From a virus (Duplodnaviria; Caudoviricetes), in IMG/VR virus record IMGVR_UViG_3300012940_000024, positions 1 through 64,000 of that record: a stretch of DNA of 64,000 nucleotides. One strand, 5' to 3'. The position numbers and the translations under genes are program-made. The notes beneath the pieces were generated by a model. That model had not been told where the DNA came from. It worked only from the letters and a program-made list of their open reading frames with translations, and made no database searches. This document shows, in pieces, positions 57,827 through 63,687 of the stretch (positions are counted from its first letter, which is position 1; each line of letters begins with the position of its first letter).

Positions 57827-59034
57827 ATGAACAACTATGAGCCTAACATTTTTGCTATTGATGATGGATATGGAGATACAGTGCGCCCATAAGGGTGATA
57901 TAGAATTGCGTTTCTAGCAAAACGCTGGGTTCAACCCTAATTATAGCCCATTACCACCAAACTTATTCATGAGGGAAACCAAGTGAGGAGTGTAGCATGT
58001 TTGGAAAGCTATAAGTTGGCAAGTTACCATGCCACGACTGAATAGCAAGGTAAAATGTTGTAAACGAGGTTAAAGGCTAAACTGCTTGAAGGATAGACCG
58101 AAGGGGGCTACCGTAACCAATGGCGGAAGGTAACTATTAACGTCATTCAACTCATGGAGTTAATTATTTTGTGTCTAATTAACTCAAATAGATATGTAAT
58201 AAATGAAAAGTATTACATATGATAGGGTCAGAGTTGACTAAGCATAATCTATGTTAAAGGTCGAAAGTCCTAACCGACATTACAACAAGCTATTCTATAT
58301 CATCTAAATGGGGATTGCCTGTATTAGCAGATGAAGATCCGAAAAGACATAAATTGTTATATGATTTAATCGTTAAAACACATCATGTAAAAATTTCTGT
58401 CAACGGAAAAGAATTAGAAGAAAAAGAAATTACTGTAAAGAATTTGATTATTCGTAAACAACCATTCGGTTCTCTATGTGATGTTATTTTGGATAAGGAT
58501 GGAAAAATTATTCATCAAGACATTGCAAAAGGATATAATGTAATAGCTGATATTGGTGCAAGAACATTCAATTTATATACTTTAAATAAATTAAGACCAA
58601 TAGCTGATAAAAGTACCTCTACACAACATGGAATGTATTCAGCTTATCAAACAGTGAATAAATGGATAGAATCTAATTTAGGAAGTCCAATCCCTGACGG
58701 AAAAATTAAATCCTATATAGATGAAGGGAAGATTAAAGGATACTCACTTGCAAAAATTACTGAATTTGCATATCGTCAATTAGCTAATAGAATCAAAGGG
58801 GTTATTGAAAAAACATTTATTAATAATTGGGCAATGGTAGATCGTATTATTTTTACAGGTGGGGGAGCAACAGAAAAATTATTAAAACCGTATTTAGAAG
58901 AAGCATTTAAGGACAAGAAGGTGGAAATCATCTTTTTAGGAAGATATAATACGGTAAATGGATTAAGAAAATATGGGATGTTGGAATGGAGAAAAACAAA
59001 TAAAATAAATAAAAGTGATGTGGTGAATCAGTGA
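57827..59034 (+). pseudogene. parM: ParM/StbA-like actin ATPase interrupted by an intron fragment and missing part of exon 2
   Basis: Exon 1 57827-57880 MNNYEPNIFAIDDGYGDT (phosphate-1 loop, RBS AAAGGAG); remainder from GLP onward has QPFGS, IADIGARTFN, FTGGG, NTVNG actin-fold motifs. Confidence 0.8.
57881..58320 (+). mobile_element. Group II intron 5' fragment (domain I only; no IEP, DV or DVI)
   Basis: Starts GTGCGCCC at a codon boundary; TGATATAGAAT (57896-57906) pairs with ATTCTATATCA (58292-58302); EBS1 TGTGTC (58170-58175) in the loop of a 10-bp stem complements exon IBS1 GATACA; TGGAAAGC and ACGACTGA motifs as recalled for Ll.LtrB. Confidence 0.85.
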
Positions 59035-60073: not shown

Positions 60074-61102
60074 ATGAATAATACTGTGACAAAACAACCA
60101 TATAATAAAAAGAAAGTGTATGAATTAAAATTTATTAAAGAAAAGGTAATTAATTTTTTAAATGATAAAAGTGAAAATACCGCACTGAATTATAAAGTAG
60201 ATATTAATCAATTTACACAATACTTTTTTAAAAAGGATTGGGAATGTGTATTAGAAGAAGAATTAGAAAAAATTGAAGCAAACGATATTGTTACATATAA
60301 AAACTGGTTAAGGGAGCAATATTCTAACTCAACCGTTAATAGAAGAATCAATTCAATGAAAAGCATTTTCGGTTATTTAGAAGCAGACAATCCAAAAATA
60401 AGAAAAGCTATATTTAAGGTAACAAAAAGCTTAATGGAGAATCCCGACAGCTACGGTTCTCTTACATGGGAAGAAGTTTGTGAAATGATTGAAAGGGCAA
60501 AAAAATATCCTGATGGTGAAGAGTTTAGCATTTTAATTGAAGTAGCTGTAAAAACATGTATCCGGCTAAGTGCATTATTAAGCCTTACATGGGAACAAAT
60601 ATATGATAAAAATCAAAAAGGGGAAAACATTAAGGTTATAGAAGTAATAGATAAAGGGCAACCGCACATTAAACCCATTTCAGAAAAGCTATACCAACGG
60701 ATTGAGACATTAAAAGGAAATGAAGTTGTTTTCCGGCACTTCCATCCACATAAAGTAGGGAAGTATATTGAAAAGCTTTGCAAAGAAATGAATATCAGTG
60801 AAAAAAGAAATATCAAATTCCACTCATTTAAAAAAGCTGGTATCAACTATGTATTTGATACTACTGGTGACATTATGCTTGCACAACAACAAGGAAATCA
60901 TAAATCCAGTACCACAACAATGAAATCTTATCTCCAAAACAAAGAAGATTTAAGAGATATTCCTTCATATACAATGGGGGAAGATATTAATCTTGACGAT
61001 TTAAACAATTTAAGCAAGGAACAATTATTAGAAGCAATCAATAAATTAAGATCAAGTAGTAAATTAGAATTATTAAGAATTACAAAAGAAATTTTTCGAT
61101 AA
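60074..61102 (+). CDS. Tyrosine-recombinase-fold protein (SPbeta YopP-like)
   Basis: NSTVNRRINSMKS, TCIRLSALL, FHSFKKAG, GNH...TMKSYL, plus C-terminal extension. Confidence 0.75.
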   Translation: MNNTVTKQPYNKKKVYELKFIKEKVINFLNDKSENTALNYKVDINQFTQYFFKKDWECVLEEELEKIEANDIVTYKNWLREQYSNSTVNRRINSMKSIFGYLEADNPKIRKAIFKVTKSLMENPDSYGSLTWEEVCEMIERAKKYPDGEEFSILIEVAVKTCIRLSALLSLTWEQIYDKNQKGENIKVIEVIDKGQPHIKPISEKLYQRIETLKGNEVVFRHFHPHKVGKYIEKLCKEMNISEKRNIKFHSFKKAGINYVFDTTGDIMLAQQQGNHKSSTTTMKSYLQNKEDLRDIPSYTMGEDINLDDLNNLSKEQLLEAINKLRSSSKLELLRITKEIFR

Positions 61103-61153: not shown

Positions 61154-61465
61154 TCATCTTAATTGAAGGAAGGTAATAACATCTTGAATTTTTAAATCAT
61201 CAACAAACATTTTTGCATTAACCAAATAAATCCATTTTAATTTCTTAATATGAGTAATATTAAATTCATAACAGATTTTCGTTTCAATAGCCTTTCTTAT
61301 TTTAAGATTCATTCTTTTTTTAACTTTAGATGGAGTTTTCTCTAAATTTTCTCCATAAAAATCTTTTGTTAATCTAAATGCATTAATTTCAATAATTTTT
61401 AATAATTCATTTATATCTTTTTGTGACAATCTATTTTCTCTAGAATTTTCTAATAAATGAGTCAT
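61154..61465 (-). CDS. Basic hypothetical protein (weakly ORF6C-like)
   Basis: 103 aa, RBS GGGG; lies downstream of the CRISPR array. Confidence 0.55.
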   Translation of the reverse strand: MTHLLENSRENRLSQKDINELLKIIEINAFRLTKDFYGENLEKTPSKVKKRMNLKIRKAIETKICYEFNITHIKKLKWIYLVNAKMFVDDLKIQDVITFLQLR

Positions 61466-61599: not shown

Positions 61600-61899
61600 A
61601 TTTCAATCCACACATCTATGTATGATGTGACATATGCATATACAGACATTGTAATGCAATTCACTAACTTCAATCCACACATCTATGTATGATGTGACCT
61701 GTTTTGACTTGTATTTGTTCAGAAGGGATTCAACTTCAATCCACACATCTATGTATGATGTGACACGAGCGATAGCAAGCGATCTTATTCTTTTGAAATT
61801 AACTTCAATCCACACATCTATGTATGATGTGACAACAAACAGGACACACAAGGCGTTATGGAAGCCGACTTCAATCCACACATCTATGTATGATGTGAC
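61600..61899 (-). CRISPR. CRISPR array: 5 x 32-bp repeats GTCACATCATACATAGATGTGTGGATTGAAGT, 4 spacers
   Basis: Repeats at 61868-61899, 61802-61833, 61733-61764, 61667-61698, 61600-61631 (last ends GAAAT); unique spacers of 34, 37, 34 and 35 bp; internal hairpin CACATC/GATGTG. Confidence 0.97.
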
Positions 61900-62009
61900 A
61901 GCGAATTAAATATTATTAGTAATTTTTTTACCCATTTTTGAATTAACATTGAGAAATATTACTTATAAATATTCAAATCAATGTTTAAAACAACTTATTT
62001 TTAATAAAA

Positions 62010-62060
62010 TTTAGTGCGAATCATCTTGTAAATTTATGTTTGCTTTATATTCGCACTAAA
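62010..62060. repeat. 12-bp inverted repeat in the leader/tracr boundary
   Basis: TTTAGTGCGAAT-N27-ATTCGCACTAAA. Confidence 0.8.
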
Positions 62061-62190
62061 ATAACAAGATGTGTGAACTGCCTATACGGTAACACAATGT
62101 ATAGGATTAACCCTTAGGTGAGAGTTTAAAATCAAATTTAACCTCACCAGTCGGACATAGTAAGCTTGCCCGCCTATCATTAAAAATATA
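62060..62190 (-). ncRNA. Putative tracrRNA
   Basis: Minus-strand CAGUUCACACAUCU (62080-62067) pairs over 14 nt with repeat AGAUGUGUGGAUUG (two G-U); upstream hairpins CCTATAC/GTATAGG and GGTGAG/CTCACC; ends approximate. Confidence 0.7.
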
Positions 62191-62192
62191 GT

Positions 62193-63687
62193 TTATTTTG
62201 ATGTTATGGTATCATCCGTTTCTTTTATAAATTTTTCATTTAGATCAGATTCTTCAATTGGTTTAGCGTTTGCAATATTTTGACTGGCATTATAATCTGC
62301 GTTTGCTTCAAAACCACATTTTTTACATTTAAATAATTCCTGTCTTACACGTTGACCTTCTTCTAAATTTCCGCATTGGCTACAGGTTTGAGAAGTGTAG
62401 CTAGGATCAACAAAATAAACTTTAATTCCTTTTTTATGTGCTTTATAAACAATCATAATTTGAATTTGATAATATGACCATAAATCATTAAAGTTTTTTC
62501 TTTTCTTTTTTTTGTGATTAAATGATAATTTTTCTAAATGTATACTTTCAGCATTATGTTTTACTGCAAAATCAACTATTTTTTTACTTATAATATGACT
62601 ATGATTTTTGCGAAAGTTTTTTTCTTTTTTTTTCAATTTTTCTAATGATTTCATTTTTCGTTGGTATCCTTTTCCAGATCTATTACTATCAGAATCAATT
62701 TGAAGTCTCCTTCGCTGTGTTTGAATGGCAGTCCAAACTTTTAAACCCTTCTCTTTATAACTTATTTTTTCTTTTATATTTGGTTTATCATTTAATGATA
62801 CATAAGCAGAAATTTCTATTCCTAGATCTACACCAACAATTCTATTTGGAATTGATTTTTTTTCTTTTACGGGAATGTCTAAAGCCAAATTTAAAATTAA
62901 TTTTTTACCAACACTAATACTACTATCACATAATTTATATTCTTTATTGATAACTTTATCTAATAATGATATTAATTCATTTTTTTTTTGCTTTTTGTTT
63001 ACTTCCTTTTTTTAAAATAATTTTAAATAATACCCCTTTGCCCCATTCGCTATTTGCCCATTTATTTCTAATATTAAGAAAATAATCATCTCCTTCCTTA
63101 TAAATAACCATTGAACGATTTCTAATCATTAAATTATCAGTTTTTTTATATATTTGTATGGTTCGTTCTCCTTTTAATATCTCATCAATGTTATTTTCAA
63201 AATCTGCTTTTACTTTACTTATAATACGATTTACAGTATCATAATGCAGTTTAAATTTTTTATGTATTAGATTATCTATTAATGTATCTTCATTTAAAAT
63301 GATAGCTTTTTGATAAATTTTTTCAGCCTGATTATTAAATTGTTTTTCTAATTCAGTAAGTTTATCTTTAGCATTATTTAGTTCAATTTGTGCTTTTTGA
63401 ACTCTTTTAAGTGCTTTTTCTTTATCCTTTGCTTTATTAGCTTTTTCTTTTACATTAATTAAATTATTTAATTTTTTTTCAATTTTTTCATTTTGTTCTT
63501 CAATTTTTTCATTATATATTTCATTAATTTGTTTAAATTCTTGTGTGGCAACATGTTTGAAATAATAATGATTAAGTGTAAAATTCAATGCTAGAAATTG
63601 CTTATGTAATTCCTCACGCATAAAAATATTAATTTCATCTTTGTTTTCAGAAACAATTTTAATTTCAAACTTTCTTGTTAGTTTCAT
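62193..63687 (-). pseudogene. cas12f: Cas12f (type V-F/TnpB-related) nuclease, 497 aa if one A is removed from the A10 tract at 62980-62989
   Basis: Rejoined frame ...KQKAKKNELISLLDKVINKEYKLCDSSISVGKKLILNLALDIP...; RuvC D (GVDLG), E (IHLEKL), D (NADYNA); CSQC/CKKC Zn finger; adjacent array and anti-repeat. Confidence 0.85.

Follow-up and report, generated by a model that had tools for sequence, protein, structure and literature searches.

A phage-borne type V-F1 Cas12f locus with a type I-C-style leader and array and a frameshifted nuclease gene

How does a phage that carries a miniature CRISPR nuclease and no adaptation genes come by the spacers in its array? Adaptation genes are usually missing from type V-F1 systems, and the locus described here bears on how the arrays of such systems are filled. 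It lies at positions 61600-63687 of the window, by which we mean the whole stretch of 64,000 nucleotides analysed (positions 1 to 64,000 of IMG/VR record IMGVR_UViG_3300012940_000024); the full record, from a soil metagenome, is a phage contig of 83,837 bp that is about 52% complete, the whole genome being expected to measure about 160 kb. A preliminary description of the window had proposed a minimal type V-F system made up of cas12f, a structured RNA with an anti-repeat, an AT-rich leader and a five-repeat array, and all of these parts are indeed present on the minus strand (Table 1), with gene and array co-stranded and the first repeat of the array 293 nt downstream of the cas12f stop codon. 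The flanking genes had been taken as those of a phage, and phage-family genes do lie on both sides: terminase, portal, a ParM-like partition protein, a repressor and a recombinase on one flank and genes of PHROG phage families on the other. The carrier is a large Clostridium-like phage, probably a phage-plasmid. The best homologues of its portal protein show only 41-43% identity and occur in four of 381 Clostridiaceae genomes, and the five Clostridiaceae genomes that carry type I-C arrays have none. The lack of cas1, cas2 and cas4, first remarked on for the window, extends to the 83.8-kb record as a whole: the Cas1, Cas2, Cas4 and Cas5d families were searched for and had no member there, so that the record holds no complete type I-C gene set either, although it should be noted that at about 52% completeness cas genes could lie on the missing part.

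Table 1. Features of the Cas12f locus, with positions counted in the window
Feature	Position	Strand	Basis or remark
cas12f N-terminal part, 236 aa (WED and REC with long helical insert)	62977..63687	minus	ORF; ends at a TGA made by the frameshift
Frameshift site, A10 homopolymer (T10 on the plus strand), +1	62980..62989	minus	sequence; alignment with L052
cas12f C-terminal part, 261 aa (rest of WED, RuvC I-III, zinc-ribbon TNB domain)	62193..62978	minus	open frame; profile matches
cas12f stop codon (TAA)	62193-62195	minus
tracrRNA region	62003..62178	minus	alignment of 14 loci; RNAalifold; single-sequence fold
tracrRNA stem 1	62168-62174 with 62152-62156	minus	14-locus alignment
tracrRNA stem 2	62142-62148 with 62117-62124	minus	14-locus alignment
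tracrRNA conserved single-stranded segment	62107-62115	minus	14-locus alignment
tracrRNA stem 3	62099-62105 with 62081-62087	minus	encloses conserved loop 62088-62098
Anti-repeat, 14 nt	62067..62080	minus	pairs with repeat positions 15-28
12-bp inverted repeat, 27-nt loop	62010..62060	minus	I-C-style leader element; possible tracrRNA terminator
T-tract after the inverted repeat	62003-62009	minus	sequence
AT-rich leader, inverted repeat to first repeat	61900..62002	minus	sequence
CRISPR array, 5 repeats of 32 nt and 4 spacers	61600..61899	minus	I-C repeat architecture
Repeats, 32 nt each	61868-61899, 61802-61833, 61733-61764, 61667-61698, 61600-61631	minus
Spacers	61834-61867, 61765-61801, 61699-61732, 61632-61666	minus	34, 37, 34 and 35 nt

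The nuclease is encoded by two ORFs that together amount to about 497 aa. The C-terminal half matches CnCas12f1 (PDB 8HR5) with E 1.7e-68, the RuvC D/E/D triad and both CxxC pairs of the zinc ribbon being aligned, and it matches the Cas12f1-like_TNB profile of Pfam (4e-24) and the guided_TnpB profile of NCBIfam (3e-52). For the N-terminal half a word-based protein search found nothing, and an exhaustive search gave only 21 matches at E<=1e-3 among 1.8 billion representatives, with a best non-self identity of 36-39% for full-length matches and of 47% for one fragment of 106 aa. A scan of genome contigs for exact peptide patterns returned only distant TnpB-like genes, and a final scan of IMG/VR no relative closer than those already found. 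A profile built from the relatives of the N-terminal half matches 8HR5 end to end (residues 1-478, E 7.8e-162), and the AlphaFold model of this half (pLDDT 80) has 8HR5_A as its top Foldseek match (E 1.6e-7), followed by other Cas12f structures, so the WED/REC half has the Cas12f fold. In the tree the gene is sister to that of L052, a JGI metagenomic contig, inside the CnCas12f1 clade (support 81/97). On the strength of these sequence, profile and fold matches to 8HR5 and of the tree position the gene is a member of the CnCas12f1 (type V-F1) clade, the Clostridium novyi-type group to which it had been assigned from its motifs, and the acidic RuvC residues and zinc finger are intact as had been stated. 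It should be noted that the gene has diverged within this clade: it departs from 15 of 88 clade-conserved positions and so retains 83% of the conserved residues, against 99% in L052, its nearest relative, and its terminal branch is twice as long as that of its sister.

The effector is TnpB-derived, and the TnpB-family models of Pfam and NCBIfam match it as they match every Cas12f, so we considered whether the gene might be that of an IS200/IS605- or IS607-type TnpB transposon that happens to lie beside an unrelated array. This is extremely improbable. The record contains no Y1 transposase (Y1_Tnp) and only a single TnpB-family match; the best PDB matches are all experimentally characterised Cas12f proteins (CnCas12f1, RhCas12f, AsCas12f and Al3Cas12f), and ISDra2 TnpB is far weaker. 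Relatives, moreover, keep the order gene-tracrRNA-array, and among them anti-repeat and repeat covary.

In the assembled record cas12f is split by a +1 frameshift, a single extra A in the A10 run, and the uninterrupted frame expected of a V-F1 effector is missing. With nine A the junction aligns gap-free to the intact 506-aa relative (L052:3450-4970), and a linker insertion at the junction is common only to these two genes. The title of the preliminary description was silent on a broken gene, although its reference to a 'frame-repaired' protein implied the interruption that is confirmed here. Likewise, its statement that the phage carries its own interference system holds for the existence of a V-F1 locus with cognate tracrRNA and array, but it assumed a working nuclease, and the gene is out of frame and short of part of its conserved residues. 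The extra A might have come from sequencing or assembly, or might represent a minority variant, the real phage having nine A and an intact, active Cas12f. Such an origin would fit a one-base lesion that lies in the gene's longest homopolymer, the perfect junction obtained by deleting one A, and the apparent upkeep of the rest of the locus. None of the three other A/T runs of >=9 inside ORFs of the record, however, breaks its frame, and two very long ORFs (4375 and 2382 aa) are uninterrupted, which gives no hint of a systematic homopolymer error. Gene calls from three sources (JGI, ENA and Logan) likewise include the truncated product of 236 aa, one of the contigs being a separate one of 105.7 kb, though possibly all of them go back to one read set. 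We therefore consider an error or variant unlikely, though by no means negligible. If the extra A is genuine, full-length Cas12f could be made only through reversion or through slippage of polymerase or ribosome, and the locus would have been switched off very recently or else be expressed at a low level. The frameshift and the excess divergence at conserved positions both fit decay.

The RNA between gene and array had been described as structured and as containing an anti-repeat, and this is borne out. The tracrRNA region folds more stably than its shuffles (z -2.96 for the single-sequence fold), and RNAalifold on the alignment of 14 loci gave 17 pairs, 11 of them with compensatory changes; the scaffold is conserved across these loci. 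The anti-repeat forms 12 Watson-Crick and two G-U pairs with the repeat and leaves its final 4 nt, next to the spacer, free of pairing, a geometry that is identical in the four loci read (the window, pCB111, L052 and L051, the last being a further JGI metagenomic contig). RNAduplex energies for anti-repeat and repeat were -21.8 to -23.4 kcal/mol, compared with -15.8 +/- 2.8 for shuffled repeats. Relatives have their anti-repeat at the homologous position too, in each case complementary to the repeat of the same locus. As RNAduplex on whole intergenic regions proved too noisy for three loci, it was replaced by a test restricted to the homologous anti-repeat window; across loci the mean was -12.8 kcal/mol for cognate and -7.9 kcal/mol for non-cognate pairing, a difference equalled by one of 20,000 permutations. 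The locus therefore has what a V-F1 tracrRNA should offer, a conserved scaffold and an anti-repeat between gene and array. No Rfam family matched the tracrRNA or anything else in the record, and a scan for promoter consensus sequences gave no candidate above background and did no better than with shuffled sequence.

The array and its leader are type I-C in style. The repeat has a length of 32 nt, a 5' hairpin and a conserved 11-nt 3' handle, with spacers of about 33-37 nt; it is identical to that of L052 at 30 of 32 positions and to the canonical I-C repeat of locus L035 at 24 of 32, the hairpin being kept through compensatory changes and the 3' handle conserved. In blastn the repeat reaches I-C arrays that adjoin cas3-cas5c-cas8c-cas7c in B. 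thuringiensis, and it also matches I-C arrays in Clostridiaceae genomes. The inverted repeat of the leader recurs in L052, in L051 and at the canonical I-C array of L035, with the same arms, a loop of 28-29 nt and equal spacing from the first repeat, so that it is placed as it is upstream of bona fide I-C arrays; its pattern is fitted by 35 IMG/VR loci, those checked including loci with Cas8c/Cas7c and Cas1c, and a chromosomal I-C leader of Clostridiaceae (L090) has an inverted repeat with a similar loop sequence. The repeats of 13 relatives, found in Clostridiaceae genomes, on plasmids and on a phage contig, are I-B-like. The window anti-repeat distinguishes the two kinds, with -21.8 kcal/mol for I-C-type repeats and -10.4 kcal/mol or weaker for I-B-type ones. 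The preliminary description had treated the array as a self-contained part of a minimal system and had missed this I-C style; as repeat and leader are both of that style, the array is a module that has been borrowed or is shared. One base sets the leader-distal repeat apart from the other four, which are identical: the handle is canonical in the distal repeat and one base off in the others, and this derived base is absent from the distal repeat, from L052 and from the canonical I-C repeats seen, a pattern that would fit gain of spacers after the change arose. The repeat with up to three mismatches was found in none of 401 Clostridiaceae genomes, and an exact 26-mer of it nowhere in IMG/VR. On other large phages several unrelated TnpB-derived genes also adjoin I-C-style leader-repeat modules.

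Such an array raises the possibility that cas12f is a dead relic and that the phage instead uses a viral I-C mini-array, processed by host Cas5c and loaded into a host I-C Cascade, to exclude competitors. The frameshift, the excess substitutions at conserved positions and the long branch are what a relic would show, the repeat has retained the hairpin of I-C repeats and a 3' handle close to canonical, the leader is of I-C type, and I-C systems occur in Clostridiaceae. The use of mini-arrays whose repeats are of host type is well established among viruses (PMC11656645), and viral mini-arrays are known to function in this manner. The lesion, however, is a single reversible one in a mutable A-run, every catalytic and zinc-binding residue is intact, and the scaffold and 14-bp anti-repeat, which an array serving Cascade alone would not need, are preserved; L052 has the same gene-tracrRNA-array unit with an intact gene, and four of the five repeats carry the non-canonical base in the handle. 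We think it unlikely, on this balance, that the gene is only a relic. A second possibility is that the locus acts mainly against host immunity, its I-C-type repeats or its tracrRNA sequestering or disturbing host I-C crRNA biogenesis in the manner of RNA anti-CRISPRs. A segment conserved in the canonical I-C repeats seen is able to pair with the first 8 nt of the anti-repeat, the anti-repeat of L052 pairs with that segment only, and RNA anti-CRISPRs that mimic repeats are known in phages (PMC11656645). Real spacers of normal length and the signs of repeated acquisition point instead to a guide function, and a conserved scaffold of Cas12f type would be superfluous in a decoy, so that a role of this kind is very improbable.

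The spacers were compared with phage and plasmid databases, as the preliminary description had suggested, and no target was found for any of the four; competing phages or plasmids, which it had proposed as targets, are thus candidates only. When the whole array was run in blastn against INPHARED and PLSDB, the only matches were chance-level ones of 20-30 nt and I-C arrays reached through the repeats; exact 22-23-mers of all four spacers had no match in IMG/VR, and the 83.8-kb record contains no self-target. Spacer 2 had one match of 28/32 in an ORF of no PHROG family among the 385 scored of 401 sampled Clostridiaceae genomes, where about 0.2 such matches are expected by chance, and it was rejected. 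As no protospacer was found in INPHARED, PLSDB, IMG/VR or the 385 scored genomes, no PAM could be read from target flanks.

Taken together the data make it likely that this is a genuine V-F1 locus of the CnCas12f1 clade, carried by a large phage or phage-plasmid of temperate type whose host is a low-GC Firmicute; the locus has captured an I-C leader-repeat module, and its gene is out of frame in this record. From what is known of the family we infer expression and cleavage of the usual kind: the array would be transcribed from the minus strand, the 14-nt anti-repeat of the tracrRNA would base-pair with each repeat in its 3' half, and a Cas12f dimer would bind this duplex and cut PAM-flanked DNA matching the spacer. 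The anti-repeat has co-evolved with the new I-C-style repeat. As the record is without adaptation genes, spacers were most likely gained in trans, and host Cas1-Cas2-Cas4 of type I-C, recognising leader and repeat, would have inserted them; the locus thus probably depends on a host I-C system for spacer gain. Types I and V both read a 5' PAM beside the repeat-proximal end of the spacer, so that spacers acquired through I-C should be usable by Cas12f, and the predicted PAM is TTC or another T-rich motif.

A bolder reading is that Cas12f and its tracrRNA form a dual-use module that takes its guides from the host as well. Because the canonical I-C repeats seen share a conserved segment with which the anti-repeat pairs, Cas12f could load crRNAs from host I-C arrays besides those of the phage array, which in turn would be filled by host I-C adaptation and be readable by host Cascade, while the A-run in the linker would act as a slippage-prone ON/OFF switch that limits the cost of the nuclease or self-damage. 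We regard this as doubtful; were it true, the capture of class 1 arrays by miniature class 2 effectors would be a recurrent phage strategy.

The locus that we favour, a V-F1 system with a captured I-C module, resembles that of CnCas12f1 (8HR5, 497 aa) in protein length once the frame is restored, in domain order and the long helical REC insert, in its RuvC and zinc-ribbon residues, in a homologous tracrRNA scaffold downstream of the gene and in the short array that follows without adaptation genes. It differs in sequence, identity in the C-terminal half being about one half (52-55% with the two closest of the relatives measured) and the N-terminal half barely detectable by direct sequence search, and in its frameshift. 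Its repeat and leader are of I-C type, whereas at L037, a locus of C. novyi type, the repeat is I-B-like and 29 nt long. Su et al. are said to have found a C-rich PAM for CnCas12f1 in 2024. The nearest relatives, L052 and L051, share the I-C-type repeat (30/32), the leader inverted repeat, the tracrRNA scaffold and the linker insertion, and the window protein is 47% identical to that of L052 over its full length (55% in the C-terminal half). In these two loci, unlike the window, the gene is intact, the hairpin part of the repeat is variable, pairing of the anti-repeat is confined to the conserved 7 nt and the genomic context is not evidently that of a phage. Because the window gene is broken and divergent its practical value as a nuclease is limited, and L052 is the better candidate.

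Three further comparisons concern the source of the array. For the type IV-A3 systems of plasmids, acquisition in trans reportedly works through a compatible leader and repeat. The IV-A3 study describes gain of spacers through host type I-E machinery (bioRxiv 10.1101/2023.06.23.546257), and the likeness to the window lies in an interference module on a mobile element without adaptation genes that would use host type I adaptation, as we infer for the phage locus, and the difference in effector class and partner subtype. V-F1 has also been found to co-occur with type I-B, shared adaptation being proposed from this co-occurrence and from PAM similarity (PAMPHLET preprint, 10.1101/2024.04.09.587696). 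There too a V-F1 locus without Cas1-Cas2 has a type I-like array, but in the window the partner is type I-C, the leader is shared as well and the anti-repeat has changed to match; that preprint makes no argument from the anatomy of repeat, leader and anti-repeat. Viral mini-arrays and prophage arrays (PMC11656645) are likewise short phage arrays with host-type class 1 repeats and no adaptation genes, but they have no effector or tracrRNA of their own, whereas the array in the window is coupled physically and structurally to cas12f and tracrRNA. The window and L052 thus amount to a natural swap experiment in which, within one Cas12f clade, an array module of I-B style gave way to one of I-C style, leader included, and the anti-repeat changed along with it, as piggy-backing on class 1 adaptation machinery predicts. 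The locus in the window also documents a phage or phage-plasmid whose Cas12f system has just one lesion, a reversible one, and it provides a PAM prediction and the defined tracrRNA of a divergent compact nuclease. The kind of system is the known V-F1; what is new is the captured I-C leader-repeat module.

The cas12f gene is read in two pieces (see table), both of which could be placed in the same family. The C-terminal half matches Pfam Cas12f1-like_TNB and NCBIfam guided_TnpB, and its closest solved relative is CnCas12f1, the 497-aa type V-F1 effector of Clostridium novyi (8HR5, E 1.7e-68), to which it can be aligned at the RuvC D/E/D residues and at both CxxC pairs, bearing out the intact acidic residues and Zn finger of the preliminary description. 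The N-terminal half is strongly divergent, with no more than 21 matches when 1.8 billion representatives were searched exhaustively; of these, the top non-self full-length ones (36–39% identity) are the N-termini of Cas12f-like proteins of 414–515 aa. The profile from these relatives covers 8HR5 end to end (E 7.8e-162), and an AlphaFold model of this half (pLDDT 80) has 8HR5_A as its top Foldseek match, followed by other Cas12f structures only. Neither a Y1 transposase nor another TnpB-family copy was found anywhere in the record. Taken together, these results give good support to membership of the CnCas12f1-type V-F1 clade, so that the motif-based assignment was correct; the reading of the locus as a TnpB transposon was rejected on the missing transposase and second copy and on the best matches being Cas12f structures.

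Features of the locus and its left flank (window positions)
Feature	Position	Strand	Details
cas12f N-terminal piece	63687..62977	minus	236 aa ORF
cas12f C-terminal piece	62978..62193	minus	open frame, 261 aa
Anti-repeat, window	62067-62080	minus	14 nt; 12 Watson-Crick + 2 G-U pairs, -21.8 kcal/mol
Leader inverted repeat, 12 bp	62010-62060	minus	type I-C-style
ORF between array and recombinase gene	61154-61465	minus	103 aa
Xer-like tyrosine recombinase	60074-61102		left of locus
Interrupted part of the ParM-like partition gene	57827-58330	plus	

The source record is a linear IMG/VR virus of 83,837 bp (about 30% GC; CheckV completeness estimate 52%), of which the window covers bases 1–64000. Besides the recombinase, genes for terminase, portal, exonucleases, a sigma factor, a ParM-like partition protein and a CI-like repressor lie to the left of the locus, and LysM and sporulation-type proteins and regulators of PHROG phage families lie to the right. 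As phage-family genes occur on both sides, gene content places the locus within a phage and not in a host flank, as had been described, and the partition system, recombinase and repressor together suggest a temperate phage or phage-plasmid. Homologues of the portal (41–43% identity) occur in a few Clostridiaceae genomes. The 103-aa ORF, which may or may not be part of the locus, matched no Pfam, NCBIfam or PHROG family. After a ParM-type N-terminus near 57830, the ParM-like gene is interrupted by about 430 nt in which every frame contains stops; the ORF resumes at 58315, and the PHROG partition profile is matched from position 111 onward only. This insert, which folds far better than shuffles (z −4.87), is 72% similar to a part of Bacillus phage BUCT083 that carries no annotation and has no family in Rfam itself, is probably an intron or intron remnant.

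The gene, a structured RNA and the array were all found on the minus strand, as previously noted, the array having five 32-nt repeats (four identical, the leader-distal one with one base different) and four spacers of 34–37 nt. Relatives were found in 14 Clostridiaceae genomes (43–52% C-half identity), on C. botulinum, C. sporogenes and Bacillus arachidis plasmids, on two large IMG/VR phage contigs and on two metagenome contigs, and in most a short array lies 140–520 nt downstream of the gene. The 293-nt region between gene and array holds the predicted tracrRNA, with a scaffold common to the intergenic regions of the relatives (RNAalifold: 17 pairs, 11 with compensatory changes). In each locus the third stem is followed directly by a segment able to base-pair with the 3′ half of that locus's repeat, which upheld the anti-repeat proposed earlier; 4 nt are left unpaired before the spacer in all four loci where the geometry was read (the window, C. 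botulinum plasmid pCB111 and the metagenomic (JGI) relatives L052 and L051). The window anti-repeat pairs with I-B-type repeats at −10.4 kcal/mol or weaker, and over 10 loci the mean was −12.8 kcal/mol for cognate and −7.9 for non-cognate pairing; one of 20,000 permutations equalled the cognate pairing, although it should be noted that the loci are interrelated and this figure is indicative, not a true probability. Because the anti-repeat matches each locus's own repeat, the array appears to be functionally tied to the Cas12f gene.

Thirteen relatives with arrays have 29–31-nt repeats, mostly of the clostridial I-B kind, whereas the window, L052 and L051 share a 32-nt repeat that has a 5′ hairpin and whose 3′ handle is the one conserved in type I-C. 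In the window, this repeat agrees with the L052 repeat at 30/32 positions and with a canonical I-C repeat (L035) at 24/32, the stem being kept through compensatory changes, and in blastn the array matches I-C arrays beside cas3-cas5c-cas8c-cas7c in Bacillus thuringiensis and others in Clostridiaceae genomes. The leader inverted repeat recurs in L052, L051 and L035 with equal loop length and distance to the first repeat, and is also present, its loop similar in sequence, in an I-C leader on a Clostridiaceae chromosome. A pattern derived from this inverted repeat picked up 35 loci in IMG/VR, almost all of which have canonical I-C repeats, and some of those checked encode Cas8c/Cas7c and Cas1c. 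By sequence, the array module (repeat and leader) is type I-C in style. An unlikely rival reading is that the locus works as an RNA decoy directed at the I-C immunity of the host. The tree places the window Cas12f and that of L052 as sisters, so a single change of array module would be enough to explain the I-C pattern. A derived base is present in the four leader-proximal repeats and absent from the distal repeat, L052 and the canonical I-C repeats compared. Since repeat duplication takes place at the leader end, this distribution suggests spacer gain after the base had arisen. The six repeats of L052 (L052:5464-5827) vary among themselves in the hairpin part, the 3′ handle being identical in five (the last differs); this variation matches anti-repeat pairing with the conserved 7 nt only.

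The two cas12f pieces overlap within an A10 run (plus-strand T10, 62980-62989), the C-half frame opening just some 10 codons upstream. The nearest relative is the intact 506-aa gene of L052 (L052:3450-4970), and a linker insertion is common to these two proteins only. When the window is read with nine A the junction aligns to the L052 protein without a gap, so the lesion would be a single-base expansion of the poly-A run. The extra A could instead be an artefact. Against this, the truncated 236-aa product is likewise listed among the gene calls of JGI, ENA and Logan, one of them on a 105.7-kb contig, though all may stem from one sample. The record gave no sign of systematic homopolymer error: none of its three other A/T runs of at least nine inside ORFs breaks the frame, and two very long ORFs (4375 and 2382 aa) are intact. 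We consider it fairly likely that the frameshift is real in the DNA. Of the clade-conserved residues the window protein keeps 73 of 88 (83%) and that of L052 82 of 83, and the terminal branch of the window protein has twice the length. These values are consistent with a degree of relaxed constraint, though other members with intact genes have diverged to a similar extent. Long A-runs are known to cause slippage and, if the frameshift is real, recent inactivation and low-level expression via slippage or reversion at the run seem evenly balanced.

Cas12f is a dimer in all solved family members, and in the mechanism proposed here the dimer would bind the tracrRNA:crRNA duplex and the complex would cut PAM-flanked DNA (predicted PAM TTC or T-rich), while an I-C adaptation complex of the host, recognising the I-C leader and repeat, would provide the spacers in trans. 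The 83.8-kb record (52% complete) encodes no Cas1, Cas2, Cas4 or Cas5d, which extends the preliminary finding for the window. It is possible that the Cas12f is a relic, the array being a viral mini-array used by the I-C Cascade of the host, but this leaves the preserved scaffold and perfect anti-repeat unexplained. Searches with the four spacers, as had been recommended, gave no match elsewhere in the record and no target in INPHARED, PLSDB, IMG/VR or the Clostridiaceae genomes searched, so a role in inter-element competition is still conjecture.

Other miniature-effector loci were also seen. On three IMG/VR contigs of 149–214 kb (L084:1258-2900, L061 and L080), TnpB-family ORFs of about 440 aa (NCBIfam IS200_TnpB 215–225 bits, below cut-off), not close to the window Cas12f, end 50–90 nt before an I-C-style leader inverted repeat and a mini-array of two or three I-C-like repeats, and constitute a second lineage of miniature effector adjoining an I-C array module on large phages. 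On six IMG/VR contigs of up to 166 kb (L058:8054-10500, L053, L063, L064, L082 and L083; four at 112–166 kb) a 261-aa reverse-transcriptase-like ORF (weak matches to group II intron RT and Drt3a) overlaps the beginning of a 377-aa TnpB-like one. After the latter come a leader hairpin of I-C style and a set of three divergent I-C-like repeats. The last quarter of the TnpB profile finds no match in the 377-aa ORF, which therefore seems to be without the C-terminal zinc-ribbon part. The sole plasmid tblastn match to the window N-half (L033:3483-5742, Bacillus arachidis NZ_CP127374.1), a Cas12f relative annotated only as 'transposase', has a mini-array of three I-B-like repeats both upstream and downstream of the gene, in inverted orientation. 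Plasmid pCB111 (L001:3332-5494) carries a CnCas12f1-type gene, annotated merely as 'RNA-guided endonuclease TnpB family protein', a tracrRNA scaffold and a 6-repeat array over which PLSDB, whose feature table has no RNA or repeat entries, gives no annotation; five C. botulinum/C. sporogenes plasmids are similar.

The locus is real and had been correctly typed; it is a V-F1 locus with a captured I-C leader-repeat module, phage- or phage-plasmid-borne and out of frame in this record, and is of more interest for its anatomy than as a source of a nuclease. V-F systems are enriched on plasmids (PMC11656645), and type IV-A3 systems of plasmids are reported to gain spacers in trans (bioRxiv 10.1101/2023.06.23.546257). 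Co-occurrence and similar PAMs had already led to the proposal that V-F1 and I-B systems share adaptation (preprint 10.1101/2024.04.09.587696), whereas the partner here would be type I-C, with a co-evolved anti-repeat and shared leader, a V-F1 variant of which, to our knowledge, the literature searched holds no description.
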